This document shows positions 2,267-34,126 of a stretch of 34,218 nt of DNA, piece after piece; position 1 is the first letter of the stretch, and each line of letters starts with the position of its first letter. Location of the stretch: positions 1-34,218 of the forward strand of contig JACCRH010000346.1 of the NCBI GenBank assembly GCA_013813675.1, written 5' to 3'. Position numbers and translations under genes: made by a program. The stretch is from Gemmatimonadales bacterium. Its GTDB lineage: Bacteria > Gemmatimonadota > Gemmatimonadetes > Gemmatimonadales > GWC2-71-9. The notes under the pieces were generated by a model, which was given only the letters and a program-made list of their open reading frames with translations, was not told the origin of the DNA and made no database searches.

Positions 2267-2279
2267 CGAGAGGAACCCC

Positions 2280-2840
2280 GTGTCGAGCAGCTTCAAGGTG
2301 CAGGTGAGCAAGGACTACCTGGTCTTCGCCTCCGCCCACTTCATCACCTTCCGCGGTCACCAGTGTGAGACGCTGCACGGACACAACTACCGGGTGGGCG
2401 TGGCGGTCGAGGGCGCGGTGGACTCGGAGACCCTCTTCGTCCTCGACTTCAGCGTGCTGAAGCAGATCACCCGCAGGCTGGTGGACGAGATCGACCACAA
2501 GGTGCTGCTGCCCAAGCTGAATCCCAAGCTCGGCTACCGGGAAGACGGCAACCGCCTCGCGGTGGATTATTTCGGTGAGCCCACCTACGTATTCCCCCGG
2601 GCCGATTGCGCTCTGCTCCCCATCCAGAACAGCACGGCGGAGATGCTGGCGCAGTACCTCGGCACCCGGGTGCGCGACGAGCTGATCCAGGGCGGCTACC
2701 GTCACCTCACCCTGTTGGAGGTCGAGGTGGAGGAGAACTACGGGCAATCGGCGACCTACCGCGAGGTGCTGGCGCTCGACGGAGTGGAAGCGGGCGCCGC
2801 GAGAGCCAGCGCGTCGGCCGCGCCAACCCGCCCCGTGTGA
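2280..2840 (+). CDS. 6-pyruvoyl-tetrahydropterin synthase / QueD-family protein
   Basis: It carries ASAHFI...CETLHGHNYRVGVAVEG and VLDFSVLK, typical of PTPS/QueD. GTG 2280 is preceded by GAGAGGAA. ATG 2244 is also in frame. The C-terminal tail overlaps the convergent gene. Confidence 0.8.
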   Translation: MSSSFKVQVSKDYLVFASAHFITFRGHQCETLHGHNYRVGVAVEGAVDSETLFVLDFSVLKQITRRLVDEIDHKVLLPKLNPKLGYREDGNRLAVDYFGEPTYVFPRADCALLPIQNSTAEMLAQYLGTRVRDELIQGGYRHLTLLEVEVEENYGQSATYREVLALDGVEAGAARASASAAPTRPV

Positions 2841-4616: not shown

Positions 4617-5227
4617 CGCCCGTCGTCATCAAGATCGGGGGAGGGCTGCTCGGCGTGAGCGGCGCGCTCGAGGCGGTGTGCCCGGCGGTCTGCGCGATGG
4701 GGCGGCGCGAGCCGGTCGTGGTGGTCCCAGGTGGCGGGCCGTTCGCGGACGCGGTGCGGGCCCTCGATCGCCACACCGCCCTCTCGGCGGAAACAGCCCA
4801 CCGGATGGCGATCCTGGCCATGGATCAGTATGCCCACCTGCTGGCGGAGCGGATCGAGGGCGCCGTTCTGGTGGAGGAACCCGGCGGCCTCGCCGCGGTT
4901 CACGCCGCCGGGCGCGCGGCGGTGCTGGCGCCCTCCCGCTGGCTCCGGGCCGCCGATCCGCTGCCGCACAGCTGGGATGCGACGAGCGACAGTGTGGCGG
5001 CGTTCGTGGCCGGCGCGCTCGACGCTAGTCGTCTCGTGCTGGTGAAGCCGGCGGAGGTAGGGGAGGAGGGAGTGGACCGATGCTTCGCGATGGTGGCGCC
5101 GGCGGGACTCGAGGTCAGCGTGATGGGATGGGCGCGGTTCGCGGCATCCGCCTCGACCCGGGCTTCGCTCCGTTCCGCCTCGCGGCCAACAGCTGCCCCA
5201 TTCGCTCCGCCGTCAGCGGGCGGCTGA
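4613..5227 (+). CDS. Amino-acid kinase (aspartate/glutamate/uridylate kinase) family protein, H4MPT-cluster type
   Basis: The N-terminus VVIKIGGGLL, plus VVVPGGGPFAD and ATSDSVAAFVAG, fit the family. ATGA overlaps the previous stop at 4613-4616. The low-complexity C-terminal tail overlaps the convergent EAL gene, so the real end is uncertain. Confidence 0.7.
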   Translation: MTPVVIKIGGGLLGVSGALEAVCPAVCAMGRREPVVVVPGGGPFADAVRALDRHTALSAETAHRMAILAMDQYAHLLAERIEGAVLVEEPGGLAAVHAAGRAAVLAPSRWLRAADPLPHSWDATSDSVAAFVAGALDASRLVLVKPAEVGEEGVDRCFAMVAPAGLEVSVMGWARFAASASTRASLRSASRPTAAPFAPPSAGG

Positions 5228-8108: not shown

Positions 8109-8212
8109 GCGAGTGCGTCGGGAGTCGTAGCCGATTGATAGGCAATACTTATGCCCCTGCGGCCGATTGCATAGCTCCTTTCGCGGTGCAGATTTGAGAT
8201 GCTGCGGAGGCG

Positions 8213-8965
8213 CTATCCCGGCGATGGGCCTCGCGTTCTGCCAATCGGCGCGGCCGCCTCGGCATCGAGCCGCTCCCGGATTCGGCGCACCAGGAGCGAG
8301 TCGACCCAGCCCTCCCGCCCGCCCCGGCAGGCCGCGCCCCGCACCCCCACCACGTCGGCGATATCGCGGAGGTGACCAAGCGAGGTAAGATCCAGACTTC
8401 CCGCGGCCGCGAACAGCAAGCCGGCCGAACGGGCGCCTGCCGAGAGGCTGCTCAGCCGATCAAGGGAGAGCCAGTCGAGCAGGCTCCTACCATCCTTCAG
8501 GCAGGTGTCGACCAGAAAGGCGCGCGCGCCGGCCGTGATGGCCAGGTGAAGCAGATCCTCCGGCAGCGGCGAGTGCCCACTCCCATGATCGGCGTAGGCG
8601 ACCGGCACCACGATGTGATCGGCTCCGAGAGGTGCGGCCGTCTCCAGCGCCGCGGCCAGGATCGAGGCCAGGACGAAGTCGGACCGCTGACCCGCGAACC
8701 CCAGCTTCAAGTAGATGGGAGCGCCGCGTCCGGGTAGTCTCACCCTAGCCAGAGCTCGCCGTACCGCGACGGGCGAAGTGAAGTCGCCCAGTGCCACGCT
8801 GAACGGCACCGCGGCCGGCACCCGCCCCGAAATCGCCCGCATCGCCTCCGGCGAGACCGCCCCGAGCGAGCCGTGGGCCGGCTCTTTGGCGTCGATGATA
8901 TCGGCGCCTCCGCCCAGCGCAGGTCCCACCTCGCCCACGGCACGCACGCTCACCAGCAACTGCAT
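8213..8965 (-). CDS. mfnB: (5-formylfuran-3-yl)methyl phosphate synthase (DUF556), methanofuran/methylofuran biosynthesis
   Basis: MQLLVSVRAVGEVGPALGGGADIIDAKEPAHGSLGAV matches the MfnB N-terminal signature (LLVSVR..E...A..GGADIID.K.P..GSLGA). It is followed by a TIM-barrel-like pattern. Confidence 0.8.
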   Translation of the reverse strand: MQLLVSVRAVGEVGPALGGGADIIDAKEPAHGSLGAVSPEAMRAISGRVPAAVPFSVALGDFTSPVAVRRALARVRLPGRGAPIYLKLGFAGQRSDFVLASILAAALETAAPLGADHIVVPVAYADHGSGHSPLPEDLLHLAITAGARAFLVDTCLKDGRSLLDWLSLDRLSSLSAGARSAGLLFAAAGSLDLTSLGHLRDIADVVGVRGAACRGGREGWVDSLLVRRIRERLDAEAAAPIGRTRGPSPG

Positions 8966-9762: not shown

Positions 9763-9823
9763 TGCGGAACATTCGTCATCCCGCGCTCGGCGCGGGATGA
9801 TGCCACGAACTGGAGGAGATGCC

Positions 9824-10186
9824 ATGCCTGCAACCAAAGAGCGCACCTACAACGAGTCCGAGATCGCGGAAAAGCTGAAGGAGCTTTCCGGCTGGTATTT
9901 CGAGGATGGCTGGATCCGGCGGATATACAAGACCGACGGATGGCCCACCACCCTGATGCTGGTGAACGCCGTCGGGTATATGGCCGAGGCAGCCTACCAT
10001 CATCCGGACCTCACGGTGACCTGGGGCCGGATCACCGTCAAACTACAGAACCACGCCGCCGGCGGGATCACCGACAAGGACTTCGAGCTGGCTCGCAAGA
10101 TCGAGGAGGTCGCCCTCTGGCGACCCCAGGGTGGCGCCCTGGAAGGCACGCCGAACAAGTGGGTGCGGCCGGGGGATCCGAGGTAG
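9824..10186 (+). CDS. Pterin-4a-carbinolamine dehydratase (PCD/DCoH family)
   Basis: GGAGGAG at 9812-9818 lies 5 nt before ATG 9824. It carries GWPTTLMLVNAVGYMAEAAYHHPDLTVTWGRITVKL, which holds the family HHPD motif. Confidence 0.85.
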   Translation: MPATKERTYNESEIAEKLKELSGWYFEDGWIRRIYKTDGWPTTLMLVNAVGYMAEAAYHHPDLTVTWGRITVKLQNHAAGGITDKDFELARKIEEVALWRPQGGALEGTPNKWVRPGDPR

Positions 10187-10188
10187 GT

Positions 10189-10287
10189 CGGAACGGCGGA
10201 ACGGCGGTACGGCGGAACGTGAGTGCTCCGGCGCGGAACTCCGACCCGGAGCGCGACCGCCGTACCGCCGTACCGCCGTTCCGCCGG
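10189..10287. repeat. Long intergenic hairpin built from CGGAACGG/CGGTACGG octamer repeats
   Basis: 10195-10215 (GGCGGAACGGCGGTACGGCGG) is the perfect reverse complement of 10265-10285. The 49-nt loop holds an inner 7-bp hairpin, GCTCCGG 10225-10231 paired with CCGGAGC 10246-10252. The structure fills the whole gap between the TAG at 10186 and the GTG at 10288. Confidence 0.85.
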
Positions 10288-11682
10288 GTGCTTTTCGTCT
10301 CCGGCAAACTCGCCGAGCCCGCGCTCCGGCGGGTATTGGAAGAGATGCAGCCGTCGTTCGAGGCTCCGGTGGCGGTCATGAAGATCACGGTCGCGGCGCT
10401 GATGACGACGCCGTGGATCGCCCGGTTCCTGGAGGTCCCGCCCGACACCGATCTCGTCCTCATCCCCGGTCTCTGTGAGGGGGACGTCGAGATCCTCCGG
10501 AAGCGCTTCGGAGTGCGGGTGGAGAAAGGTCCCAAGGACCTCCGGGAGATCCCCCGGTACTTCGGCCAGGCCGCCGCCGCGGCCGAATACGGCGCCTACC
10601 GCATCGAGATTCTCGCCGAGATCAACAATGCTCCCAAGCTGTCGCTCGAGGCGATCGTGGCCGCCGCCGGCTATTTCCGCTCGAGCGGCGCCGACCTCAT
10701 TGACGTCGGCTGTACCCCCGGCCTCCCCTTCCCCGGACTGGGAGACGCGGTGCGGGCGCTCCGAAGCGCCGGCATGCGGGTCAGCATCGACAGCTTCGAT
10801 CCCTCCGAGATCCGCGCCGCGGTCGAGGCAGGCGCCGAGATGGTGCTCAGCGTCAACCGGTCCAACCTCGAGGTGGCGCGGGAGCTGAAAGGCACCGACG
10901 CCACGGCGGTGGTGATCCCCGACCAGGGGGAGGGAATCGACACCCTCGGTCCGAGCATCGAGGCGCTGGAGGCGTGGGGCGTTCCCTACCTTCTGGATCC
11001 GATCATCGAGCCGATCGGCTTCGGCTTCATGGCCTCGCTGGAGCGATACGCCGAAGTGCACCGGCGCTATCCTGAGGCGGGACAGCTCATGGGGATCGGC
11101 AACATCACCGAGCTGACCAGCGCCGACAGCACCGGCGTGAACGCCGTCCTGGTGGCCATCTGTGAGGAGCTGGGCGTGCGCGCCGTGCTCACGACCGAAG
11201 TCATTCCCTGGGCCCGGGGTGCGGTGCGGGAGATCGACATCGCCCGGCGGTTGATGCACCACGCGATCAGCCGCGGCACCCTTCCCAAGGGCGTCGACGA
11301 CCGGCTGGTGACGGTCAAGGATCCCGCGATCCTGGAATACGACGAGGCCGAGCTGCGGCGACTCCACGAGGCGGTCACCGACCCCAACTTCCGGATCTTC
11401 GCCGACCGGACCACGATCACGGTCTTCAACCACTCGCTCTTCGTTCGAGGTGACGACATCCAGGAGATCTTCTCGCGGCTGGGGGTGGAGGAGGCGGCCC
11501 ACGCCTTCTATCTGGGGCGGGAGCTGATGAAGGCCAAGCTCGCGGTCACCCTGGGAAAGACCTACCGCCAGGAGGGCGCGCTTGCCTGGGGATACCTGAC
11601 GCCGCCGGACGACGTGAAGTCGGAGCAGGTGAAGCTCACCGCACGAAAGCGGGGGCGCGGCGGCGCGCGCAGGGACCCATGA
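10288..11682 (+). CDS. Dihydropteroate-synthase-like pterin-binding protein with an N-terminal extra domain (H4MPT biosynthesis, MptH-like)
   Basis: This is in-frame GTG 10288 of track ORF 9940..11682. The N-terminus is VLFVSGKLAEPALRRVLEE. The pterin-binding barrel pattern includes GADLIDVGCTPG, VSIDSF and ILAEINN. The start is uncertain, since GTG 10219 is also in frame. Confidence 0.8.
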   Translation: MLFVSGKLAEPALRRVLEEMQPSFEAPVAVMKITVAALMTTPWIARFLEVPPDTDLVLIPGLCEGDVEILRKRFGVRVEKGPKDLREIPRYFGQAAAAAEYGAYRIEILAEINNAPKLSLEAIVAAAGYFRSSGADLIDVGCTPGLPFPGLGDAVRALRSAGMRVSIDSFDPSEIRAAVEAGAEMVLSVNRSNLEVARELKGTDATAVVIPDQGEGIDTLGPSIEALEAWGVPYLLDPIIEPIGFGFMASLERYAEVHRRYPEAGQLMGIGNITELTSADSTGVNAVLVAICEELGVRAVLTTEVIPWARGAVREIDIARRLMHHAISRGTLPKGVDDRLVTVKDPAILEYDEAELRRLHEAVTDPNFRIFADRTTITVFNHSLFVRGDDIQEIFSRLGVEEAAHAFYLGRELMKAKLAVTLGKTYRQEGALAWGYLTPPDDVKSEQVKLTARKRGRGGARRDP

Positions 11683-13163
11683 GCGGCCTTGTTCCGCTGG
11701 TGCAGGACCTTGACGGATTTCCCGACCCGGCGGAGCTGGCGGCGCGATTCCTAGATTCGCCCTACCTGCTGTTTCTCGACAGCGCCGCCGGCACCGGGTT
11801 CTCCTATCTCGCCGCCGACCCGGCCATCGTGGTGCGCAGCAAGGGCAAGGTCACCGAGGTCATGCAGGGCGACGCCTGGCGGATGGCGGAGGGGGACGCC
11901 CTCGATGTGATCCGCGGGATGTTGCAGGACGCGCGCGTCGATCCGGCGCCCGGGCTGCCCCCGTTCCAGGGAGGCGCCGCGGGATACATCGGATACGACT
12001 ACGGTGCCGTGCTCGAGCGGGTCCCGCCAACCCGCCACGACGATCTCGCGCTGCACGACGTGCTCCTGGGCTTCTACGACTGGGTGATCGCCTGGGACCA
12101 CCGCCAGGAGAGGGCGTGGATCGTCTCGCTCGGGTTGCCGGCGTGCGGCTCGGAGCGGGAGGGCCGGGCGCGGGAGCGGATGGAGGTGGTGGCGGCCCGG
12201 GCAACGAGGCGGTTGGACAGCGCGGAAACATCATCCCGAGCGACCGCGAGGGATGACGCTTCCCCACAGCGCCGCCGACCCACCGCCGCGCCGTCCTACC
12301 CGGTCACCTCCACCGATGCCGCGGTCGCGATCGGGCTCCGATCCACCTTCACTCACCGGGGGTATCTCGACGCGGTGGCCAAGGTGCGGGAGTACATCGT
12401 CGCGGGCGACATCTTCCAGGCCAACCTTTCTCAGCGCTTTCAGGCGCCGCTCGGGGAGCCGCCGTTCGAGCTGTACCGCCGGCTGCGGCAGCGCAATCCG
12501 GCGCCGTTCGCCGCCTATCTCGGATTCGGGGATGTGGTGGTGCTGAGCGTCTCCCCGGAGCGGTTCCTCCGGCTCGATCACGAACGCCAGGTGGAGACCC
12601 GCCCGATCAAGGGCACTCGCCCGAGGGGGCTGGTGCCGATGCACGACGCGGCGCTGGGACGGGCGCTGGCGGAGAGCGAGAAGGATCGCGCCGAGAACGT
12701 CATGATCGTCGATTTGTTGCGCAACGACCTGAGCCGGGTGTGCCGGCCGGGAACGGTGCGGGTTCCCGAGCTGTTTGCCCTGGAGCAGCATCCGACAGTC
12801 CACCATCTGGTCTCCACGGTGGTGGGCGAGCTGGAGCCGGCTGCCGACGCCGTGGACCTGGTGCGGGCCGCGTTCCCCGGGGGCTCGATCACCGGCGCCC
12901 CGAAGGTTCGGGCGATGGAGATCATCGCCGAGCTGGAGCCCACACGGCGAGGGGTGTACTGCGGCGCGATCGGCTACCTCAGCGCCACCGGCGCGATGGA
13001 CAGCAGCATCGTGATCCGCACCTTCGTGGCCACCGGCGGCGAACTATACTTTCAGGCCGGCGGCGGGATCGTGGCGGACTCCGATCCGGAGCTCGAGTAC
13101 CGCGAGACGATGGACAAGGCGCGAGCCCTCATCGAAGTCTTGAAGGGCGCGGCGGACTCATGA
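11679..13163 (+). CDS. pabB: Aminodeoxychorismate synthase component I
   Basis: Chorismate-binding motifs are present (FQANLSQRF, SPERFL, IKGTRPRG, FPGGSITGAPKVRAMEII, GVYCGAIGY). There are ATGA overlaps at both ends (11679-11682 and 13160-13163). Confidence 0.85.
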   Translation: MSGLVPLVQDLDGFPDPAELAARFLDSPYLLFLDSAAGTGFSYLAADPAIVVRSKGKVTEVMQGDAWRMAEGDALDVIRGMLQDARVDPAPGLPPFQGGAAGYIGYDYGAVLERVPPTRHDDLALHDVLLGFYDWVIAWDHRQERAWIVSLGLPACGSEREGRARERMEVVAARATRRLDSAETSSRATARDDASPQRRRPTAAPSYPVTSTDAAVAIGLRSTFTHRGYLDAVAKVREYIVAGDIFQANLSQRFQAPLGEPPFELYRRLRQRNPAPFAAYLGFGDVVVLSVSPERFLRLDHERQVETRPIKGTRPRGLVPMHDAALGRALAESEKDRAENVMIVDLLRNDLSRVCRPGTVRVPELFALEQHPTVHHLVSTVVGELEPAADAVDLVRAAFPGGSITGAPKVRAMEIIAELEPTRRGVYCGAIGYLSATGAMDSSIVIRTFVATGGELYFQAGGGIVADSDPELEYRETMDKARALIEVLKGAADS

Positions 13164-15365: not shown

Positions 15366-15989
15366 GGCCCACCTAAGCCTCCCGTACTCGGCGACTTGGC
15401 CGGTTCCGAAAGCGGGTTTGGCGCGAGCCGATCGTCTCGTCGCCACTCGGCATTACCCAGGAGCCGGATGCAGTTCCAGCGGCATCACGAGAGGCAGCCG
15501 CCTCCCCCGACTGCAGTCCATTTCTGACACATCGTGGTTCAGCGGCGTCGCTGAGGAATATGATGGGCGTATTCCCGTTGGCGGACACCTTGAGTTTCTT
15601 CTCGAATCCTTCGCCGTCCCGCGGGGGCCCGGCTCACGCGCCGGCCGGCGGACGGACCGACAAGGTCTGGTGGTGCTGCCATCAACCGACGAACCCGCAG
15701 CGTACCGCCGCCGCAGCGCACCCCCCAACCCACTACATTGCGTATCCACCGCATCCACGCGGTACCCGGGCCCCGGCCGGCATCTGGCGTGCTGATGGCC
15801 GGCCGGTACATCCGGCGAGCCTCGACCGCTCGTATATCAGATCGGACCGCGGGATGGGCGCCGAGCGCGGACCGCTGTCCGCCAGGTCCTGCCTGCCGGG
15901 ACTCCCCCGACCCAACCGGCACGCATGCGGCACCCGAGCCCGGTCGCCGCTTCCGCAGTCCTCGGGTTCGCAGCAAGTGGACTCCGATT

Positions 15990-16008
15990 GCAGTAGAAGC
16001 AGTAGAAT
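15990..16008 (+). promoter_or_regulatory. Perfect tandem 9-mer (GCAGTAGAA x2) with a TAGAAT -10-like hexamer just upstream of xoxF
   Basis: GCAGTAGAA occurs at 15990-15998 and again at 15999-16007. TAGAAT lies at 16003-16008, 24 nt before the xoxF ATG. No good -35 hexamer sits at 17-nt spacing. Confidence 0.3.
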
Positions 16009-16031
16009 CACCCTTCATCCTGAGGTCAGTT

Positions 16032-17873
16032 ATGAACCGTTTCACGCAGAAGGTGCTGTCTGGCGGAATCGCGGCGGGCCTGTCGTTGGCCGTCGTGGCC
16101 TCCGCCAACGCCCAGGCGGCGCGCTCGGGGGCATGGACCCTGAATGCGCCCGAGGGCGAATGGCACATGACGGGCCGTGATTATGGCTTGCAGCGCTTCA
16201 GTCCGCTCAAGCAGATCACGACCTCCAACGTGGCCGAGCTGCGGCCGGTCTGGTCGTTCTCGACCGGAACGCTGCGCGGGCATGAGGGCAACGCCCTCGT
16301 CGTCGGCAACGTGAAGTACATCCACACCAGTTTCCCCAACATCGTGTACGCGCTCGACCTCGCCAAGCCTGGCGCGCCCCAGATCTGGAAGTACGTGCCG
16401 AACCAGTCGCCCGACGCGATTCCCATCGCGTGCTGCGACCTGGTGAACCGGGGCCTGGCGTATCACCCGAGCGGGAAGCTCTTCATCCAGCTTCTCCAGG
16501 GCGAGCTGCTCGCGCTCGACGCGAAGAGCGGCAAGGAGCTGTGGAAGGCGAAGCACCCGGATAAGTCCAATGCCGGCGTCGAGGCGACCGGGTATAAGCA
16601 GGGCGCCACGATGACCAACGCCCCGATCGTGATCAAGGACATCGTCATCGCCGGCATCTCCGGCGGTGAATTCGGCGTCCGCGGCCGGGTCTCGGCGTTC
16701 AACACCAACGACGGCAAGCACATGTGGACGGCGTACTCGACCGGACCGGACGCCGAAGTCATGATCCAGGGTGACGCCAACGCCAACTATCCTTCCCACA
16801 AGGGCAAGGACCTCGGCGTGTCGACCTGGCAAGGCGATGAGTGGAAGCGGGGCGGCGGCACCACCTGGGGCTGGTACTCCTACGACCCCGAGCTCAACCT
16901 CTTCTACTACAGCACCGGCAACCCGGGAAGCTGGAATCCCGATCAGCGCCCTGGCGACAACAAGTGGTCGATGACCATCTTCGCCCGCAACCCGCAGACC
17001 GGGATGGCGAAGTGGGCCTATCAGATGACGCCGCACGACGAGTGGGACTATGACGGCGTCAACGAGAACGTTCTCTTCGAGAGCGGCGGCAAGAAGCTGC
17101 TGGCGCACTTCGACCGTAACGGCTTCGGCTATACGCTCGATCGCACCAACGGCAAGCTGGTCGTGGCGCAGCCCTACGGTCCGGTCAACTGGGCCAAGCG
17201 GGTGGATCTGAAGACCGGCGTGCCGGAGAAGGATCCCCGGTACGGCACCACCGCGAAGAAGAACACCGAGGGCATCTGCCCCGCGGCGATCGGCTTCAAG
17301 GATCAGCAGCCCGCGGCGTACTCGCCGATGACCGGCTACTTCTACGTGCCGGCCAACCACATCTGCATGGACTATGAAGGTGTGGAAGTGAAGTACACCG
17401 CTGGTCAGCCCTATGTCGGCGCCATCGTGCGCATGTTCCCGGGCCCGGGTGGTCACCGCGGCCGGTTCATCGCGTGGGATCCGATGAAGGGCAAGGTCGT
17501 CTGGGAAGCCAAGGAAGGTCTGGCGGCCTACGGCGGCGCGCTCACCACCGCCGGCGGGGTGGTCTTCTACGGCACCATGGAGGGCTGGCTCAAGGCCCTC
17601 GACCAGAAGACCGGCAAAACCCTCTGGCAGTTCAAGACCCCCTCGGGGATCATCGGCAACCCGATGACCTACAACGGGCCGGATGGCCAGCAGTACGTGT
17701 CCGTCCTTTCCGGCATCGGTGGCTGGGCCGGCATCGGCGTGGCCGCGGGTATCGGCGCTGAGGATCCGACCGCCGGTCTCGGCGCGCTCGGCGCCTTCGG
17801 CGACGCGGGGAACTTCAGCAACCAGGGCGGTGTGCTCACCGTCTTCGCGCTGAAGAACCCGACCATGAAGTAA
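16032..17873 (+). CDS. xoxF: PQQ-dependent methanol/alcohol dehydrogenase, XoxF (lanthanide-dependent) type
   Basis: Internal ATG 16032 of track ORF 15738..17873 has GAGG 6 nt upstream. The signal peptide is MNRFTQKVLSGGIAAGLSLAVVASANAQA. A vicinal Cys-Cys is present (PIACCDLVNRG). W-D-Y-D-G-V-N contains the extra Asp (codon 17052-17054) that marks lanthanide-binding XoxF, where MxaF has Ala. Confidence 0.92.
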   Translation: MNRFTQKVLSGGIAAGLSLAVVASANAQAARSGAWTLNAPEGEWHMTGRDYGLQRFSPLKQITTSNVAELRPVWSFSTGTLRGHEGNALVVGNVKYIHTSFPNIVYALDLAKPGAPQIWKYVPNQSPDAIPIACCDLVNRGLAYHPSGKLFIQLLQGELLALDAKSGKELWKAKHPDKSNAGVEATGYKQGATMTNAPIVIKDIVIAGISGGEFGVRGRVSAFNTNDGKHMWTAYSTGPDAEVMIQGDANANYPSHKGKDLGVSTWQGDEWKRGGGTTWGWYSYDPELNLFYYSTGNPGSWNPDQRPGDNKWSMTIFARNPQTGMAKWAYQMTPHDEWDYDGVNENVLFESGGKKLLAHFDRNGFGYTLDRTNGKLVVAQPYGPVNWAKRVDLKTGVPEKDPRYGTTAKKNTEGICPAAIGFKDQQPAAYSPMTGYFYVPANHICMDYEGVEVKYTAGQPYVGAIVRMFPGPGGHRGRFIAWDPMKGKVVWEAKEGLAAYGGALTTAGGVVFYGTMEGWLKALDQKTGKTLWQFKTPSGIIGNPMTYNGPDGQQYVSVLSGIGGWAGIGVAAGIGAEDPTAGLGALGAFGDAGNFSNQGGVLTVFALKNPTMK

Positions 17874-17881
17874 GCTGGTCA

Positions 17882-17918
17882 CCACCAGGGTTGGAGGGAT
17901 TTCCTCCGGCCCTGGTGG
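17882..17918 (+). terminator. Strong stem-loop 9 nt after the xoxF stop (attenuator or mRNA-stabilising hairpin, no U-tract)
   Basis: CCACCAGGG (17882-17890) pairs with CCCTGGTGG (17910-17918). The helix continues through two G-U pairs into GGAGG (17893-17897) paired with CCTCC (17903-17907). Confidence 0.4.
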
Positions 17919-17977
17919 GGGTAGATTCACTGAAGTGCACGGCGCCGATCATGGGGGCGCGCAGATGCGCCCCCGCG

Positions 17978-18008
17978 GTCGGCGCCGGTCGTTGTCGGCG
18001 CCGGTCGT
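17978..18008. repeat. Tandem direct repeat of 15 nt in the xoxF-xoxJ spacer
   Basis: GTCGGCGCCGGTCGT occurs at 17978-17992 and again at 17994-18008. Each copy contains the palindrome GGCGCC. An 8-bp hairpin precedes them, GGGGGCGC (17953-17960) paired with GCGCCCCC (17967-17974). Confidence 0.7.
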
Positions 18009-18073
18009 ACACGGAGTTCGGCCTGCCGGGTCGGCTCACCCGGCGACTCCCAAGCTGGAATGGATGGCACCCT

Positions 18074-18955
18074 ATGCCTCGCTCAACCCCCGGCCGCGCG
18101 GCGCTCGCGATCCTCGCCGCCGCAGGTCTCATGGCCAATCGGGCAGCCGCCCAGCAACTTCGCACCAACCTGCCGACGCCAGGCATCCTCCGGGTCTGTG
18201 CCGACCCCGACAACATGCCGCTCTCCAACGAGAAGGGCGAAGGGTTCGAGCAGAAGATCGCGGAGCTGATCGGCAGGGAATGGAATACCAAAGTGGAATA
18301 CGCCTGGTGGCCGGTGCGGCGGGGCTTCTTCAGCCGCGCGCTCAACGGCCGGTATTGCGACGTGGCGATCGAGGCTCCCTCGGGACTCGACATGGCCGGC
18401 GTGACGAAACCCTATTTCCGCTCCGGCTATTTCTTCCTCACCCGCAAGGACAGCGGCCTCGACATCAAGTCGCTCTCCGATCCCCGGCTCAAGAAGCTCA
18501 AGATCGGCGTCAACCTGCTCCACTCCGACGCCGAGAACACCCCGCCCGCCATGGCGCTGAGCCGCCATGGCGTGATCGGCAACCTCACCGGCTACAGCAC
18601 CTTCTACACCACCGAAGACCGGCCCGAGGACATCGTCGAAGGGGTGGCAAAAAAGGAAGTGGACGTCGCCATCGTGTGGGGGCCGGTGGCCGGATACTTC
18701 GCCAAGAAGTCGACCGTTCCCCTGGTGCTCACCCCGCTCGCCGAGCGGGACTCGTTGAGCGACTTCCCCTTCCGATTCAACATCGCGATGGGTGTCCGCC
18801 GGCGCGACCGGGAGCTCCGCGACAGCCTCGACGTCCTGCTGCAGCGCAAGCAGCCGGAGATCCAGGCCATCCTGAAGGAGTACCAGGTCCCGGTGTTTCC
18901 GGTCGTCGAAGAAAGCGATGACGACGACGCGCCTCCGCCCAAGCCCACTGGCTGA
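18074..18955 (+). CDS. xoxJ: XoxJ/MxaJ-like periplasmic solute-binding protein (quinoprotein-dehydrogenase-associated)
   Basis: Internal ATG 18074 of track ORF 17891..18955 gives the signal peptide MPRSTPGRAALAILAAAGLMANRAAA. LRVCADPDNMPLSN, YFRSGYFF and VDVAIVWGPVAGYFA are typical of the MxaJ/XoxJ/PedG family. Confidence 0.8.
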   Translation: MPRSTPGRAALAILAAAGLMANRAAAQQLRTNLPTPGILRVCADPDNMPLSNEKGEGFEQKIAELIGREWNTKVEYAWWPVRRGFFSRALNGRYCDVAIEAPSGLDMAGVTKPYFRSGYFFLTRKDSGLDIKSLSDPRLKKLKIGVNLLHSDAENTPPAMALSRHGVIGNLTGYSTFYTTEDRPEDIVEGVAKKEVDVAIVWGPVAGYFAKKSTVPLVLTPLAERDSLSDFPFRFNIAMGVRRRDRELRDSLDVLLQRKQPEIQAILKEYQVPVFPVVEESDDDDAPPPKPTG

Positions 18956-19018
18956 CGCCACCCTCGATTCGGAGGCCGCCGGCCGCCTCGCAGCCGGTGG
19001 GATCTCGACCCTATATCA

Positions 19019-19480
19019 GTGAAAGGACTGGCTCACAGCATGCGCACCTCCCTCTCCGCCACGCTCCGCCGGCTGGCCGCCGGTGGTGGCATTCTTCTGG
19101 CCGCCGTGACGGTTGGCTCCCGGCTGGAGGCCCAGGAGATTCGTGACCAGTACCACCAGGCGCCGCGGGACACCGTGTCACAGGCCGTGTACGACGGCTG
19201 GAAGCAATTCAACCTGAACTGCGCGCGATGCCACGGCGAGGATGTCCTGGGCACCACGATCGCCCCCCACCTCATCGTCTCGTTGAAGCCCCAGGGGCCG
19301 ATCAACACCAAGGAGGCGTTCCTCCAGGTGGTCTGCGCCGGCCGGCCGGCGAAGGGGATGCCGGCCTGGTGCTCCCTCGGAATGGATCCCGCCATCATCG
19401 AGAAGATCTACGCCTACGTGAAGGCGCGAAGCGACGGGAAGATGTCGCCCGGCAGGCCCGCCCGAAAAGTGCAGGGCTGA
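19019..19480 (+). CDS. Periplasmic mono-haem c-type cytochrome, probable electron acceptor of XoxF (XoxG / PedF-like role)
   Basis: It has a signal-like N-terminus, one CxxCH site (CARCH) and a distal GMPAW Met. The start could be GTG 19019 or ATG 19040. Confidence 0.8.
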   Translation: MKGLAHSMRTSLSATLRRLAAGGGILLAAVTVGSRLEAQEIRDQYHQAPRDTVSQAVYDGWKQFNLNCARCHGEDVLGTTIAPHLIVSLKPQGPINTKEAFLQVVCAGRPAKGMPAWCSLGMDPAIIEKIYAYVKARSDGKMSPGRPARKVQG

Positions 19481-19530
19481 GCAGGCTGGAAAAGCCGTTC
19501 AACCGCGTGCAAGGTGAAAGTGAGGTCCCC

Positions 19531-20346
19531 GTGGGAAGTGGAATCGTCGCGAGTCTCTGGATGGCCGGACTCCTCCGCTCCATGGCCCCTGTCGTGGCCG
19601 ACACTCCCATGGTTCGCCTCGATGCCGCCCAGGTGGCTCGCCGGCTGGCCGCCGCGCCGGAAGCCACCGCGCCCGATCTGTCCGGCGTAGACCTGAGTGG
19701 GCTCGACCTCACGGATGTCGACTTCAAACGGGCCGATCTCACCGGCGCTCGCCTCGTCGGAACCCGACTGGCCGGCGCCAATCTCTTCAGTTGCGATCTC
19801 ACCGACGCGGTGGGAACCGATGCGGTGCTCACCAAGGCCAATATGGACGGCACGGTGTTGCGCCGGGCCGACTTTCACCGAGCCGATCTGGCCGGCGCCA
19901 GCCTCTTCGCCACGATCCTGGAAAAGACCAACCTGAGTGGGGCCAATCTGGCCGGCACCCGGATCATCGGCTATCTCCGGAGCGCCAACCTCTCGGGCGC
20001 CAGCCTCAGAAACTCCAACGCCGGCGCCGACCCGGGCAATCAGTCCATGGGGGTCATGCGGGCGACGTTCGTCGGCGCGGACCTGCGCGGCGCCGACCTG
20101 AGCGGCGCCAACCTCTACAAAGCCGATTTCTCCCACGCCGATCTCACGGGCGCCAAGCTGCCGCGAGCCAACCTCGAGAATGCCGAACTGGTACAGACCG
20201 ACTTCAGCCGCGCCGACCTGACGGGCGCCCGCCTGGCCAAGTCCAACATCGAGGGCGCGAGCTTTCGCGGCGCCAGAGGTTTGGCACAGACTCAGGGCCT
20301 GGATCAGGCCCGTAACCGGGACAAGGCGATCTTCGATGCCCAATGA
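19531..20346 (+). CDS. Pentapeptide-repeat protein
   Basis: This is the downstream part of track ORF 19228..20346. Its upstream part overlaps the cytochrome gene out of frame. There is a long run of A(D/N)LxG-type pentapeptides (DLSGVDLSGLDLTDVDFKRADLTGARLVGTRLAGANLFSCDLTD...). The start is uncertain: GTG 19531 preceded by GTGAGG, GTG 19507, or ATG 19561. Confidence 0.75.
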   Translation: MGSGIVASLWMAGLLRSMAPVVADTPMVRLDAAQVARRLAAAPEATAPDLSGVDLSGLDLTDVDFKRADLTGARLVGTRLAGANLFSCDLTDAVGTDAVLTKANMDGTVLRRADFHRADLAGASLFATILEKTNLSGANLAGTRIIGYLRSANLSGASLRNSNAGADPGNQSMGVMRATFVGADLRGADLSGANLYKADFSHADLTGAKLPRANLENAELVQTDFSRADLTGARLAKSNIEGASFRGARGLAQTQGLDQARNRDKAIFDAQ

Positions 20347-21433
20347 CCGCGCTCGAGCCGTTTTCCGAATCGCGCTTCCTGCATGTTTGACCCTCTCCGG
20401 CACCGCATGTAGCGGGGACGGAGCGCGATCCGGCGGCGCCGCCGATTCCGCCTCCACCGCCTCCGACACTCCCGGGGCCGAGCTCGCGTATATAACCAAT
20501 GAGGGGTCGGGCGAGCTCACCATTCTGGACACGTCGACCGACAGCGTCGTCGGCACCATCTCCGTGGGGACCCGCCCCCGCGGCATCCGGCTCAGCGAGG
20601 ACGGCCGGACCGTCTACGTGGCGCTCAGCGGGTCGCCTCGCTGCCCGCCCACGATGCCCGACGAGGAGTGTGAGAAGCTCAAGGCCGACAAGACCAAGGA
20701 CGGCATCGGCGTGATCGACGTGGCGAGCCGGAAGGTGACCAAGGTGCTCCCGGGCGGCTCCGATCCCGAGGCGTTCGACATCAGCAAGGACGGAACCCGG
20801 CTCTTCGTCTCCAACGAGGACGCGGACTCCGCCACGATCGTGGACATCGCGAGCGGCAAGATCCTGAAGACGGTCTCCGTAGGCCGGGAGCCGGAGGGCG
20901 TGGAGCTGCATCCGAGCGGCGAGACCGTCTGGGTCACCGGCGAGACCGATCACGACGTCACCGTGCTCGACACCGACAGCGGCAAGGTGATTACCAGGAT
21001 CAGCGTCGGCAATCGCCCCCGCGATCTGGCGTTCAGCAGCGACGGCGGCCGGGCCTACGTCAGCTCCGAGACCGGCGGCACCGTGTCGGTGGTCGATGCC
21101 AAGACCCGCAAGGTTGTGCGGACCTTGACGATGCCGGAAGGCTCCAAGCCGATGGGAGTGGAGCTGTCGCCCGATCAAAAGCGCCTGTACGTGGCCAACG
21201 GCCGCGGCGGGTCGGTGTCGGTGGTGGACCTGGCCACCGACTCTATCGTCGCCACGGTCGAAGTCGGTGTCCGTCCCTGGGGGATCGGGCTCACCACCGA
21301 TGGTCGTAAGCTCTACAGCGCCAATGGCCCCTCCAACGACGTGACGGTGGTGGACACCGAAACCATGAAGGTGCTGAAGAAGATTCCCGCCGGCGAGCTG
21401 CCCTGGGGAGTCGCGGTCGGCCGGGCCCCGTGA
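20336..21433 (+). CDS. YVTN-family beta-propeller protein (PQQ-dependent-catabolism-associated type), probable lipoprotein
   Basis: The N-terminus is ...LPACLTLSGTACSG. Repeated propeller blades follow (YITNEGSGELTILD, YVALSG, LFVSNEDADSATIVD, VWVTGETDHDVTVLD, AYVSSETGGTVSVVD, LYVANGRGGSVSVVD, LYSANGPSNDVTVVD). It overlaps the previous gene by 11 nt. Confidence 0.85.
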   Translation: MPNDRARAVFRIALPACLTLSGTACSGDGARSGGAADSASTASDTPGAELAYITNEGSGELTILDTSTDSVVGTISVGTRPRGIRLSEDGRTVYVALSGSPRCPPTMPDEECEKLKADKTKDGIGVIDVASRKVTKVLPGGSDPEAFDISKDGTRLFVSNEDADSATIVDIASGKILKTVSVGREPEGVELHPSGETVWVTGETDHDVTVLDTDSGKVITRISVGNRPRDLAFSSDGGRAYVSSETGGTVSVVDAKTRKVVRTLTMPEGSKPMGVELSPDQKRLYVANGRGGSVSVVDLATDSIVATVEVGVRPWGIGLTTDGRKLYSANGPSNDVTVVDTETMKVLKKIPAGELPWGVAVGRAP

Positions 21434-27274: not shown

Positions 27275-28354
27275 TCAATCCCCCAGGCTGATCCCCAGCT
27301 CCCTCGCCGTCGCGATGATGTCGCCGTCGAGAGGGACGTTCTTGGGCCGGCCGACCACCTCGGCCAGCGGAACCCTGGTGATGTCGGGCCCGTTGAGGCC
27401 GACCATCGTTCCGAACGCCCCCTCGGCGATGGCTCGCACCGCGGCGCCGCCGAACCGGAGCGCGAGGAGGCGGTCGTACGTCGTCGGAGAGCCGCCCCGC
27501 TGGAGATGGCCGAGGACCAGCGTGCGGGTCTCCTTTCCGGTCCTGAGCTCGATCGCCCGGGCTACCTTGCTCGCGATCCCACCCAGCCGATCCACCGTAC
27601 CGATGCCCCGGCGTTCCACCAGCTCGATCGCTCCGTCGCTGGGACGCGCGCCCTCCGCGACCACCACGATGCTGAAGCGGCGCCCGGCCGCCTCCCGGGC
27701 GCGGATCTTGTCGCACACCCTCTCGATGTCGAACGGGATCTCCGGCAGCAGAATCACGTCGGCGCTGCCCGAGAGCCCGCTGTAGAGCGCGATCCACCCG
27801 GCGTAGCGGCCCATCAGCTCGACCACCATCACCCGGTCGTGGCTCTCCGCGGTGGAGTGCACCTTGTCGAGGGCCTCTGTCGCGGTGCTCACGGCGCTGT
27901 CGAACCCGAAGGTACGTTGGGTGCCGCTCACGTCGTTGTCGATCGTCTTGGGCACGCACACCACCGGCAGCCCTTTGCACCAGAGCTGGTGCGAGATCTG
28001 GAGGCTGCCGTCGCCGCCGATCGAGATCAGCGCGTCGAAGCCGCTGGCCTGGAAGGCCCCCACCAGGTCGTCCGAGCGGTCGGTCTCCGATTCGTTCCCC
28101 TGCTCGTCCCGCATCACGTAGCGGAACGGATTGCCACGGTTGGTGGTGCCGAGAATCGTCCCGCCGAGATGAGTGATGCCCCGAACCTCGGCGGGACCCA
28201 GCGGAACCACGCCGTTGAACGACAAGAGGCCCTCGTAGCCGCGCAGGATTCCGTAGGATCGCCAACCGCGGTAGTGAGCCGACAGCACCACCGCCCGAAT
28301 CACCGCATTGAGCCCCGGCGCGTCGCCGCCGCCGCTGGAGATGGCGAGCCTCAC
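27275..28354 (-). CDS. pfkA: ATP-dependent 6-phosphofructokinase
   Basis: MRLAISSGGGDAPGLNAVIR, IGGDGS, PKTIDNDV, MGRYAGW and LGHLQRGG are present. The start is a GTG that overlaps the stop of the upstream small gene (GTGA at 28351-28354). Confidence 0.9.
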   Translation of the reverse strand: MRLAISSGGGDAPGLNAVIRAVVLSAHYRGWRSYGILRGYEGLLSFNGVVPLGPAEVRGITHLGGTILGTTNRGNPFRYVMRDEQGNESETDRSDDLVGAFQASGFDALISIGGDGSLQISHQLWCKGLPVVCVPKTIDNDVSGTQRTFGFDSAVSTATEALDKVHSTAESHDRVMVVELMGRYAGWIALYSGLSGSADVILLPEIPFDIERVCDKIRAREAAGRRFSIVVVAEGARPSDGAIELVERRGIGTVDRLGGIASKVARAIELRTGKETRTLVLGHLQRGGSPTTYDRLLALRFGGAAVRAIAEGAFGTMVGLNGPDITRVPLAEVVGRPKNVPLDGDIIATARELGISLGD

Positions 28355-28584
28355 CCGGTTGCCTCTCGTATCAGCCTCACCACTTCTCCAGCCTCCGCGT
28401 GCCTCCGGCTGGCCTTCTTGGAAAAGACCAGCTCGCCGTCCACCCTGACCTCGAAAACGCCACCCGACGAGGGGATCAGGCGCACCTCCGGCTCAGGGAA
28501 GGACTGCTTCAGCTCGGCCGCCAGACCGGTGGCCCGAGACTCGTAGTTTCAGACCACGCAATACTGGATGGTCACCTGCATCAT
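28351..28584 (-). CDS. Rdx-family (SelW/SelT/SelH-like) redox protein with in-frame TGA (selenocysteine) at the CxxU position
   Basis: My own minus-strand translation gives MMQVTIQYCVV[TGA]NYESRATGLAAELKQSFPEPEVRLIPSSGGVFEVRVDGELVFSKKASRRHAEAGEVVRLIREATG*. The TGA is at 28549-28551. GGAGGG lies just upstream of the two ATGs. The ORF track shows only the first 11 codons, as the tail of a spurious 652-aa ORF. Confidence 0.7.
28513..28538 (-). promoter_or_regulatory. Candidate bacterial SECIS hairpin
   Basis: The mRNA reads UGA, 10 nt, then CUCGG(G)CC-A-CC-GGUCU-GG-C-GGCCGAG. That gives 7 outer pairs with one bulged G, 2 inner pairs, and a 5-nt apical loop containing GU about 21 nt after the UGA. 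Confidence 0.55.
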
Positions 28585-28613
28585 TGCCCTCCGCCCGGGG
28601 TGTGCCGCCGCGA

Positions 28614-28642
28614 ATCGTAGCCCTCCGCTGTGGCGAAGCCAA
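28614..28642 (-). promoter_or_regulatory. Candidate promoter for the selW-like/pfkA unit
   Basis: On the minus strand: TTGGCT (28642-28637), a 17-nt spacer, then TACGAT (28619-28614). It sits about 30 nt upstream of the ATGs. Confidence 0.3.
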
Positions 28643-28670
28643 GAGGGACCGACCGCTGTGACGAGCCTCC

Positions 28671-28699
28671 TTGTCAGTCCCGACCTGGCGGCGTATCTA
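28671..28699 (+). promoter_or_regulatory. Candidate promoter for the OmpA-family gene, implying a leaderless or near-leaderless mRNA
   Basis: TTGTCA (28671-28676), a 17-nt spacer, then TATCTA (28694-28699). The ATG at 28708 is only 8 nt past the -10 and has no Shine-Dalgarno. Confidence 0.35.
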
Positions 28700-28707
28700 T
28701 TTGACCC

Positions 28708-32029: not shown

Positions 32030-32035
32030 CCAGCC

Positions 32036-34126
32036 TTGTCCCCCAATCGTCTCGGCAACGCCGCCTCCGCCTACCTCCAGTCGGCGGCGCACCAGCCGAT
32101 CCATTGGTATCCCTGGGGCACCGATGCCTTCTCCGCGGCCCGAGGGCAGGACCGGCCGGTGCTGCTCGACATCGGCGCGGTGTGGTGCCACTGGTGTCAC
32201 GTGATGGACGGCGAGTCCTACGAAGACCCCGCGCTGGCCCAGTACCTCAACGACAACTTTATCTGCATCAAGGTGGACCGGGACGAACGGCCGGACGTGG
32301 ACGCGCGGTACCAGCGCGCGGTCCAGGCGTTCACCCGGCAGGGCGGCTGGCCGCTCACGGCGTTCCTGACGCCGGAGGGCGAGGTGTTCTACGGGGGCAC
32401 CTATTTCCCCCCTGAAGGAAAGTACGGGCAGCCGGGATTCCGCACGGTGCTCGGAAGCGTGCTCGAGGCGTATCGCTCCCGGCGGGGGCAAGTGGAGGCG
32501 CAGGCGCAGGCGATCCGCCGAGTGCTCGACGCCCATCTCGACGAGAGCGCGCCGGGGGAGCCGTCGGCGGCGCTGTTGACCGAAGCGGAGAATCAGATCG
32601 CCCGAGTGTTCGATCCGGTCCATGGGGGGTTCGGCAGCCAGCCGAAATTCCCCCATCCCGGCGCGGTGACCCTCCTGCTCCATCGCTGGCACGACCAGCC
32701 CGGCGACGAGATCCGGCGCATCATCGATCGAACGCTCGAAGGCATGGCTCGGGGCGGGATGTACGACCAGCTGGGCGGAGGGTTCCACCGCTACAGCGTG
32801 GACGCGAAGTGGATCGTGCCGCATTTCGAAAAGATGTCGTACGACAACTCGGAGCTGCTGAAGGCGTATCTCGACGCCCACGCGGCGTTCGGAATCGAGG
32901 AGTACGCCGAGGTGGCGCGGGGGATCGTGCGCTGGGTCCGTGAGGTCGCCTCGGACCCCGAGGCCGGCTACGCCGCGAGCCAGGATGCCGACGTCGGCCT
33001 GGACGACGACGGCGACTACTTCACCTGGACGAGGGAGGAGGCCGCCGCGGTCCTCTCGGGGGACGAGCTGGACGTGGCCGCCGCATTCTACGACATCGGC
33101 ACCGCGGGCGAGATGCATCACAATCCGGGCAAGAACGTCCTCTTCGTCGCGGCGCCGCTGCCGGCGGTAGCTCGGCTCACCGGTCTCACGGAGGACGCCG
33201 CCAGGCTGCTGCTCGCGTCCGCGCGGCGGAAGCTGCTCGAGGCCAGAGCCCTCCGACCCGCGCCGTTCATCGACCGCACCCGTTACGCCAACTGGAATGC
33301 GATGATGGCGTCGGCGATGCTGCGTGCCTGGGCGGTGCTGGGCGATGCCCGGGCCCGCAGTCACGCGCTCGCGACGCTCGCGCTGCTGCGGCGCGAGAGC
33401 CCGGAGCCCGACGCCTTGTCCCACACCCCTGGCGGCGTCACCGGCCTGGTGGATGACCAGGTGCAGGCGGCCGCGGCGGCGCTCGACGCCTACGAAGCCA
33501 CCGGCGACCGGGAGTGGCTGCACTGGGGCGAGCGGCTCATGGCGCGGGTCTGGAAGGACTACTGGGACGATGCCGCGGGTGGATTGTTCGACACTGCCCG
33601 CGGCCGGAGCGGCGAGGAGGGTCTGCTCCCCGCTCGGGTCAAGCCGGTGCAGGACACACCCACGCCGTCGCCCAACGGGGTCGCGGGCATCACCTTCACG
33701 CGGCTGCACGAGCTGACTGGCGAAGCGCTCTGGCGCGAGCGGGCGGGTGCGCTGGCCTCGGCCTTCGCCGGCGGTGCCGCCGACCTCGGGCTTCACGGCT
33801 CGGCCTTCCTGCTGGCGCTCGACTGGTACCTCAATCCCACCACCCACCTGGTGGTGATCGGCGAGGAGGGCGACGAAACCGCCGCTGCGATGCACCGGGT
33901 GGCGCTCGCCGGCTTCGCGCCCCGGCGGGTGGTACAGCGGCTCACGCCGGCGCAAGCCGGGCCAGGCAAGCTGCCGCCGGCGCTGGCGGGTATGCTGGCG
34001 GCAGGAGCGGGGACGCGAGGCTATGCCTGCATCGGCACGAGCTGCAGCCTTCCGGTCTCGACGCTCGCTGACTGGGAGCGTCAGGTGTCGGCAATCAGTC
34101 GGCAGAGTAGTGTGTCATCATCCTGA
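32036..34126 (+). CDS. Thioredoxin-domain (DUF255) plus six-hairpin glycosidase-like protein (YyaL / SSP411 family)
   Basis: TTG start at 32036. The N-terminus (M)SPNRLGNAASAYLQSAAHQPIHWYPWG and VWCHWCHVMDGESYED match the family. Its TGA stop (34124-34126) lies inside repeat copy D. Confidence 0.9.
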   Translation: MSPNRLGNAASAYLQSAAHQPIHWYPWGTDAFSAARGQDRPVLLDIGAVWCHWCHVMDGESYEDPALAQYLNDNFICIKVDRDERPDVDARYQRAVQAFTRQGGWPLTAFLTPEGEVFYGGTYFPPEGKYGQPGFRTVLGSVLEAYRSRRGQVEAQAQAIRRVLDAHLDESAPGEPSAALLTEAENQIARVFDPVHGGFGSQPKFPHPGAVTLLLHRWHDQPGDEIRRIIDRTLEGMARGGMYDQLGGGFHRYSVDAKWIVPHFEKMSYDNSELLKAYLDAHAAFGIEEYAEVARGIVRWVREVASDPEAGYAASQDADVGLDDDGDYFTWTREEAAAVLSGDELDVAAAFYDIGTAGEMHHNPGKNVLFVAAPLPAVARLTGLTEDAARLLLASARRKLLEARALRPAPFIDRTRYANWNAMMASAMLRAWAVLGDARARSHALATLALLRRESPEPDALSHTPGGVTGLVDDQVQAAAAALDAYEATGDREWLHWGERLMARVWKDYWDDAAGGLFDTARGRSGEEGLLPARVKPVQDTPTPSPNGVAGITFTRLHELTGEALWRERAGALASAFAGGAADLGLHGSAFLLALDWYLNPTTHLVVIGEEGDETAAAMHRVALAGFAPRRVVQRLTPAQAGPGKLPPALAGMLAAGAGTRGYACIGTSCSLPVSTLADWERQVSAISRQSSVSSS

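Follow-up and report, generated by a model that had tools for sequence, protein, structure and literature searches.

Bacterial SelW-like proteins with a Cys-x-x-Sec (CxxU) motif, in which U is selenocysteine (Sec), are a known family that was catalogued between 2005 and 2008 and is among the most abundant of the known bacterial selenoproteins. In the Global Ocean Sampling (GOS) data the prokaryotic Sec forms number 427 versus 56 Cys forms (PMC2398784), and SelW-like proteins are among the selenoprotein families with very few Cys homologues (PMC2398784, PMC1794560). Here we describe a gene of this kind, which we call selW, on the minus strand at 28351-28584 of a 34,218-nucleotide stretch of DNA from a Gemmatimonadales bacterium (contig JACCRH010000346.1). 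We refer to the whole stretch as the window, and all coordinates are those of the whole window. The gene lies directly upstream of pfkA, which is predicted to encode a 6-phosphofructokinase. It contains an in-frame TGA and, just downstream of this codon, a predicted RNA hairpin. Our conclusion, to which we assign a probability of about 0.88, is that the gene truly encodes a Sec-containing SelW-like protein, has a functional selenocysteine insertion sequence (SECIS) and is co-expressed with pfkA. The features of the locus are collected in Table 1.

Table 1. Features of the selW-pfkA locus and the evidence for each
Feature	Coordinates	Strand	Evidence
selW-like (Rdx family) selenoprotein coding sequence, 77 codons	28351..28584	minus	translation, hidden Markov models, 80 orthologues
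In-frame TGA, predicted to be read as Sec (U of C-V-V-U)	28549..28551	minus	81/81 loci; aligns with Cys of CxxC homologues
Candidate bacterial SECIS-type hairpin, +11 to +36 after UGA	28513..28538	minus	folding, covariation, synonymous-site freezing
Covarying core stem of the hairpin	28534-28516	minus	
Apical loop GGUCU of the hairpin	28527-28523	minus	
pfkA, 6-phosphofructokinase, 359 aa	27275..28354	minus	NF002872, TIGR02483
Putative Shine-Dalgarno-like GGAGGG	28587..28592	minus	read from sequence; 2 nt before first ATG, 5 nt before second
Candidate promoter TTGGCT-17 nt-TACGAT	28614..28642	minus	conservation

Results

The gene encodes a predicted Rdx-family protein

The coding strand translates as MMQVTIQYCVV-TGA-NYESRATGLAAELKQSFPEPEVRLIPSSGGVFEVRVDGELVFSKKASRRHAEAGEVVRLIREATG-TGA, and the second TGA (28353-28351) is the stop. 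The Met that is conserved in the orthologues aligns with the second ATG (28581), which is probably the start codon and leads to a product of 76-77 amino acids. For the protein family searches U was written as C in the 77-aa product. The product matched the Pfam family Rdx (PF10262; 84.7 bits, cut-off 22.6, E = 5e-24), where residues 3-74 covered profile positions 1-74 of 74 across the TGA. The product also scored above the cut-offs of NCBIfam NF041051, named 'SelT/SelW/SelH family (seleno)protein' (96.5 bits vs 88), and of TIGR02174 (69.3 bits vs 34.2). The nearest solved structures are the bacterial Rdx proteins 2FA8 (E = 1e-10), 3DEX, 2OKA, 2OBK, 2OJL and 2P0G, together with human MIEN1. C9 and U12 of the window protein align with the CxxC of the solved Rdx proteins, with YCVV-TGA set against YCTQC of 2FA8 and 3DEX.

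We modelled the structure of P0004, the closest Cys-form homologue, which is 66-68% identical to the window protein. The model had a predicted local distance difference test (pLDDT) score of 74 overall and about 80-87 in the domain. Its elements follow the order beta1, CxxC loop, alpha1, beta2-4 and alpha2, which is a thioredoxin-like beta-alpha-beta-beta-beta-alpha fold. Strand 1 runs up to the first Cys, and the second Cys is part of the loop that leads into helix 1. Fold comparison returned Rdx proteins first (template modelling (TM) score 0.78-0.85, root-mean-square deviation 1.5-2.1 Å), then mouse SelW (2NPB) and then thioredoxins; superposition on 2FA8 and 2OBK gave TM scores of 0.80-0.85. 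The sequence matches and this predicted fold support the view that the gene encodes a genuine SelW-like (Rdx-fold) thiol/selenol oxidoreductase with the active site Cys-Val-Val-Sec. A preliminary description of the window, made from the letters of the DNA, had assigned the gene to the SelW/Rdx-like group and had put the TGA at the redox position of the fold. Both assignments agree with the profiles and alignments given here, in which the TGA sits at the second position of CxxC/CxxU against the Cys of the homologues.

The TGA is conserved at the same codon in all related loci

Scanning one genome per GTDB species for orthologues yielded 80 loci (L001-L080), making 81 with the window. Gemmatimonadales/Gemmatimonadota metagenome-assembled genomes (MAGs) contributed 79 of the 80, and the remaining one (L017) is a contig of 1.7 kb that binning assigned to Methylomirabilota. 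Together, the related loci provided about 0.9 Mb of flanking DNA. The preliminary description had proposed an alignment of orthologues to see whether the position is Cys or TGA. We found TGA at this codon in 81/81 loci, with the locus in frame and both flanks conserved as protein. The peptide upstream of it, M-x-V-x-I-x-Y-C-V-V, is in frame and conserved, with Ile5 kept in 80/81 loci, Tyr7 in 77/81, Cys8 in 81/81 and Val9 in 80/81. The codons of these residues vary synonymously: Cys8 is TGC in 71 loci and TGT in 10, and Val9 uses four codons. Fixed residues combined with synonymous variation 5' of the TGA are the signature of a translated sequence. The ordinary stop codon of selW is also TGA in most loci, showing that TGA is not reassigned genome-wide. 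Among close relatives the only case of TGC at the Sec codon is the Cys-form homologue P0004 (locus L081).

A start codon just after the TGA had been discounted in the preliminary description, and this held: the first in-frame ATG, GTG or TTG 3' of the TGA is the GTG at 28485, 22 codons on, which would open a reading frame of only 44 aa. The mechanical list of open reading frames (ORFs) shows this 44-aa ORF and a spurious 652-aa ORF that ends in ...MMQVTIQYCVV.

We looked for other sites of this type. No credible TGA-interrupted coding frame was found elsewhere in the window. A search of all of the roughly 0.9 Mb for a TGA followed by a GGUCU-type hairpin within a coding frame gave no further candidates, with a filter that recovered only 47/81 of the known sites.

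Two side observations concern Sec codons and selenoprotein models. A metagenomic relative, P0002 (L082:698-922), has CGA (Arg) at the Sec codon, within C-V-T-R-T; either the variant is dead or its 1-kb contig contains a sequencing error. On the plus strand of the window, residues 23-118 of a 698-aa ORF (32030-34126) weakly match the thioredoxin-like part of the selenoprotein TsoB model (37.7 bits vs a cut-off of 805). No in-frame TGA was seen in this ORF, which probably encodes an ordinary thioredoxin-domain protein.

A conserved and covarying hairpin follows the UGA

The 26-nt hairpin, CUCGGGCCACCGGUCUGGCGGCCGAG, begins 10 nt past the UGA. We number its bases from the first base 3' of the UGA (+1). 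Folded alone, the 26-nt stretch forms a GGUCU pentaloop with an energy of -12.6 kcal/mol. The outer stem is formed by pairs 11-36, 12-35 and 13-34, G14 is bulged, the core stem is formed by pairs 15-33, 16-32, 17-31, 18-30, 19-29, 20-28 and 21-27, and the loop spans 22-26. The preliminary description had claimed a hairpin at this position with a loop resembling that of the Escherichia coli fdhF SECIS. We found that it folds as described there, that it is conserved and covaries in the TGA-bearing relatives, and that the in-frame GGUCUG is identical to that of fdhF.

Covariation was evident in several pairs. At pair 15-33, 44 loci have G-C, 26 have A-U and 2 have C-G, and both partners are synonymous third positions (CGG, CGA or CGC with GCC, GCU or GCG). 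In L050 pair 18-30 is swapped to G-C. In L037 pairs 19-29 and 20-28 have become A-U and U-A, which alters two amino acids (T-G-L-A to I-G-L-M), and in L080 an A-C mismatch at 19-29 is mended to A-U. Overall, four hairpin pairs change on both sides. Across the 81 sequences the structure is paired in 87.1% of cells, compared with 18-47% after a shift of the 3' partners by 1-3 columns, and 0/500 shuffles reached the observed values on any measure. Together with the full-length Rdx match and the invariant TGA, this places the signal far above chance.

The coding sequence within the hairpin is frozen at synonymous sites. Synonymous entropy is about 0 bits for codons 17-21 versus 1.1-2.0 bits for four-fold codons elsewhere in the gene. 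Gly19 is encoded by GGT in 58/58 cases, and GGT makes up only 10.5% of the Gly codons in the adjacent pfkA genes; where codon 19 encodes Ser or Arg it is AGT or AGG. Leu20 is CTG or TTG and never CTC, the codon for 44% of Leu residues in pfkA, and Ala21 is GCG in 78/79 loci. The loop is GGUCU in 58 loci, AGUUU in 13, AGGCU in 7, AGUCU in 2 and AGGUU in 1, with G23 and U26 invariant in the 81 loci. The Cys-form relative L081 uses the usual GGC for this Gly, and its predicted fold shifts register.

selW is tightly linked to pfkA

The protein encoded by pfkA matched NF002872 with 359 bits (cut-off 253) and TIGR02483 (PFK_mixed) with 421 bits. In the window, its GTG start (28354-28352) overlaps the selW stop as GTGA (28354-28351), as had been noted in the preliminary description. 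The adjacency is widely kept, with pfkA directly downstream on the same strand in 75/81 loci over a range of PfkA identity of 63-94%. Spacing was counted in the 74 loci with an intact pfkA start. The two genes overlap in 33/74 (GTGA or TTGA in 26, ATGA-type or longer in 7), are separated by 0-5 nt in 26/74 and by 12-95 nt in 15/74. Among the 33 overlapping pfkA starts, 27 have no GGAG, GAGG or AGGA at -18 to -4, and in 22 of these the start codon is GTG or TTG. Synteny is weaker in the wider neighborhood, where a divergent OmpA-family gene is present at 66 loci and a prolyl oligopeptidase gene follows pfkA at 37.

Some loci depart from this arrangement. In L073 (6001-7165) selW lacks a stop and its reading frame continues into that of pfkA at about residue 49, with the N-terminus of PfkA, including GGDAPG, deleted; this is a SelW-PfkA fusion or pseudogene, or an assembly deletion. 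Six loci (L053, L059, L064, L074, L076 and L079) have no pfkA after selW (downstream of about 6240), and in four of them the next gene on the same strand is an uncharacterised ORF of 850-950 aa.

Upstream region

The region upstream of selW contains a putative ribosome-binding site and a candidate promoter (Table 1). In the window's clade selW has a leader with a GGAG and a conserved motif, CTACGATTCGCGGCGG, about 25-45 nt upstream of the gene; this motif recurs in 39 loci. A scan with the sigma-70 consensus did not call this site, which has 8/12 matches, so the candidate TTGGCT-17-TACGAT is proposed from its conservation. A Shine-Dalgarno-like motif was found in 31/51 of the loci lacking the leaderless-like motif described below; these 51 loci comprise 38 with TACGAT upstream, 12 with neither motif and 1 with both motifs. 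In the 45 nt upstream of selW in another clade of 30 loci (L001, L005, L006 and others), TTGGCG-18 nt-TATCGT ends 7 nt before the selW ATG and there is no Shine-Dalgarno sequence. This suggests that the selW-pfkA mRNA may be leaderless in that clade.

The gene is truncated in public annotation

The preliminary description had stated that no gene is annotated between pfkA and the OmpA-family gene. This is correct for the list of ORFs starting with ATG, GTG or TTG, but not for GenBank, which has a truncated gene on this contig: MBA3318748.1, a 57-aa 'SelT/SelW/SelH family protein' that starts at a CTG (Leu20) within the hairpin loop. The same truncation affects nearly all of the best 120 database homologues, which show a coverage of about 70-74%. 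The few full-length calls have 'W' (some), Cys (one, TGC) or Arg (one, CGA) at the Sec position; in the case that was read, the 'W' reflects translation of TGA under another genetic code. Truncated or missed calls are a recognised annotation problem for selenoprotein genes (PMC12013277). Here the mis-annotation is systematic, as GenBank and JGI present the gene and dozens of its orthologues as fragments of 56-67 aa that begin in the SECIS loop and are missing the catalytic CxxU motif. One rule that combines the Rdx hidden Markov model, an upstream TGA and a GGUCU hairpin would mend the annotation across the whole order.

Discussion

Proposed mechanism

We propose that the UGA in selW is recoded to Sec. 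The hairpin would present a GGUCU loop, the type that is bound by the Sec-specific elongation factor SelB, leading to delivery of Sec-tRNA(Sec) to the ribosome. From the sequence features described above we infer that Sec is actually inserted at the UGA and that SelB binds the hairpin. selW and pfkA would form a two-gene operon, conserved throughout the order Gemmatimonadales, in which selW is the first cistron. The GTGA overlap of the selW stop and the pfkA start makes re-initiation possible, so that ribosomes finishing selW could go on to translate pfkA. Co-transcription, translational coupling and a functional tie between the SelW-like protein and PfkA are likewise what we infer from this arrangement.

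A stronger version is that PfkA synthesis in Gemmatimonadales is mechanically tied to Sec decoding, with the availability of selenium or SelB gating the output of PfkA. In that case, most ribosomes arriving at a weak GTG or TTG pfkA start with no Shine-Dalgarno sequence would be ones that had already passed the UGA-Sec about 200 nt upstream. The SelW-like protein might also be a dedicated redox partner of PfkA, for instance through the conserved Cys214. We think that this version, with its possible redox partnership, is unlikely.

Points that weigh against the proposed reading

Several results weigh against our reading of the locus. The first concerns the decoding machinery: no selA, selB, selD or tRNA-Sec was found in the 34-kb window or the 80 related loci, which cover about 0.9 Mb of flanking DNA only. 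ARAGORN called no tRNA of any kind in the window or the 80 loci, tblastn with E. coli SelA, SelB and SelD as probes had no match in the window and related loci, and none of 20 window ORFs was identified as a sel gene in family scans.

The second group concerns the hairpin. Rfam gave no match at the gathering score for the window and no SECIS family at E <= 10 for 28300-28700. Because bacterial SECIS elements are too diverse for one general model (PMC12013277), this miss does not weigh against function. The folding energies of the region and of the isolated hairpin did not differ significantly from those of shuffled sequences (z = -0.4 to -1.35). The authentic E. coli fdhF SECIS, used as a control, was equally non-significant (z = -1.33), and since it fails the same test we dropped folding energy as a criterion. 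RNAalifold, applied to the 81-sequence alignment, proposed a different 4-bp helix with no covariation. We rejected this helix because the changes in L037 and L050 and the covariation of pair 15-33 fit only the original register. An A19-C29 mismatch is present in the window and 28 other loci.

The third group concerns pfkA. Among the Cys residues of PfkA, one is well conserved (C214, 62/67) and there is no conserved Cys pair, so PfkA offers no obvious disulfide target for a SelW-like protein. In addition, the window pfkA has its own GAGG (28365-28362) 7 nt upstream of the GTG, so strict coupling is not required here.

Alternative explanations

The alternative that survives best questions the link with pfkA: the adjacency could be inherited synteny that means nothing for function, and the overlap could have come from genome compaction. 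We put this slightly below an even chance. All of the loci come from one order, the wider neighborhood with its OmpA-family and prolyl oligopeptidase genes is also conserved, the linkage has been lost in six loci, marine relatives pair SelW with peroxiredoxin instead (PMC2398784), and the lack of a conserved Cys pair in PfkA points the same way. On the other hand, selW-pfkA is the most conserved pair of the neighborhood (75/81 loci vs 37-66), it persists down to the lowest PfkA identity observed, and in 59/74 loci the genes overlap or lie no more than 5 nt apart.

A second alternative is that the UGA is read through by a near-cognate tRNA for Trp, Cys or Arg, with the hairpin acting as a generic stimulator of read-through. 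The lack of Sec machinery in the DNA searched and the one metagenomic relative with CGA would fit this. However, the position is that of the catalytic second residue of CxxC/CxxU, and the bacterial members of the family are established selenoproteins (PMC2398784, PMC1794560). The loop also keeps the fdhF-type GGUCU with its invariant G, and purifying selection for TGA in 81 species, with TGC occurring once among close relatives, is the pattern expected for Sec use rather than for a leaky stop. We consider read-through of this kind very unlikely.

Two further alternatives are extremely improbable. The first is that the TGA is a real stop and the product is GenBank's 57-aa C-terminal fragment starting at the CTG or TTG of Leu20 in the hairpin, where MBA3318748.1 and most JGI gene calls begin and where codon 20 is one of these two starts permitted by table 11 in 81/81 loci; this restriction arises because U26 and G27 of the hairpin are invariant, no Shine-Dalgarno sequence precedes codon 20, the fragment would have neither beta-strand 1 nor any of the CxxU motif and would keep only half of helix 1 of the Rdx fold, and in 81/81 loci the 10 codons before the TGA stay in frame and are conserved at the protein level. 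The other, that the hairpin is kept only for the peptide R-A-T/A-G-L-A-A-E or for another role of the RNA, for example in mRNA stability or pfkA control, draws on the conserved helix encoded by this stretch, its unexceptional folding energy and the lack of an Rfam match, but it has to contend with constraint at synonymous sites (the GGT of Gly19 and the CGG/CGA third positions that co-vary with GCC/GCT), with amino-acid changes compensated in the RNA of L037 and L050, with the ordinary GGC and shifted fold register of the Cys form, and with a position, size and loop that suit a bacterial SECIS.

What the locus adds

The preliminary description had pointed to a link between a redox selenoprotein and a glycolytic kinase that its author had not seen described. 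Overall it overrated the novelty of the locus. The SelW-like selenoprotein family is well known and the gene is already in GenBank in truncated form, and only the selW-pfkA operon link appears to be undescribed; our search of the literature for a link between SelW and phosphofructokinase found nothing relevant. We also found no published statement on the use of selenocysteine in Gemmatimonadota or Gemmatimonas. What appears to be new is, first, that the Sec form seems to be fixed across a whole order, the Gemmatimonadales, which is a major soil lineage and, second, the tight, often overlapping and conserved selW-pfkA arrangement. The operon provides a testable handle on the long-unknown function of bacterial SelW-like proteins and bears on whether glycolytic flux is tied to redox or selenium status. 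If the gating of PfkA output were true, it would connect selenium status or redox state directly to the committed step of bacterial glycolysis. Knowledge of how Sec decoding works is unchanged by this locus.

Other content of the window

Elsewhere in the window, the regions 498-5227, 9763-13163 and 15594-21433 hold a methylotrophy-type module in this Gemmatimonadales MAG. It includes pterin/tetrahydromethanopterin-type biosynthesis genes (for an MptN-like ligase, PTPS, a dihydropteroate-synthase-like protein and a PabB/TrpE-like protein), together with genes for a pyrroloquinoline quinone (PQQ) methanol/ethanol-family dehydrogenase (TIGR03075, 658 bits), a MoxJ-like binding protein, a cytochrome c and a beta-propeller protein. 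On the minus strand, 5115-8459 encodes a large (about 1,100 aa) GGDEF-EAL cyclic-di-GMP signalling protein.

Comparison with known systems

The window protein is homologous to the Rdx CxxC proteins of known structure (2FA8, which is Atu0228, 2OBK, 2OKA, 2OJL, 2P0G and 3DEX; E = 1e-10 to 1e-5), and the redox motifs align. Those proteins have Cys-x-x-Cys and about 100-108 aa, whereas the window protein has a predicted Sec and 76-77 aa. With mammalian selenoprotein W (2NPB) it shares the Rdx fold and the CxxU motif. The mammalian system differs in that its eukaryotic SECIS is in the 3' untranslated region, the identity is only about 24% and there is no operon logic. One study reports that SelW of the mouse binds pyruvate kinase M2 and shifts glycolysis (PMC10943047). 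This may be a loose parallel to the link with pfkA, and we treat it as a lead and not as evidence for the bacterial case.

The E. coli fdhF SECIS, whose sequence we found with 100% identity inside fdhF in 5,419 E. coli genomes, is likewise a hairpin that lies within the coding region immediately downstream of the UGA. Its apex carries the same in-frame GGU-CUG (Gly-Leu), and its folding energy is similar. By contrast, the loop of the window hairpin is one codon further from the UGA (first loop G at +22 vs +19) and its stem sequence is unrelated. The window hairpin has the G14 bulge and the A-C mismatch, unlike the fdhF SECIS, which carries a bulged U.

A further comparison is with the prokaryotic SelW-like selenoproteins from the Zhang/Gladyshev surveys of bacterial genomes, the Sargasso Sea and GOS. 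They share with the window gene the Pfam/TIGR family, the CxxU after strand 1, a length of about 75 aa, a UGA near the N-terminus and a SECIS directly downstream. A low-GC marine relative from TARA/ENA (L084:651-1353) has a SelW-like gene with TGA located 1 nt after a peroxiredoxin (AhpC-TSA) gene, which matches the peroxiredoxin/SelW (Prx/SelW) pairs from ocean metagenomes (PMC2398784). Such Prx/SelW pairs are the link that has been described (PMC2398784), whereas the gene described here is from soil Gemmatimonadales and selW stands as the first cistron before pfkA.

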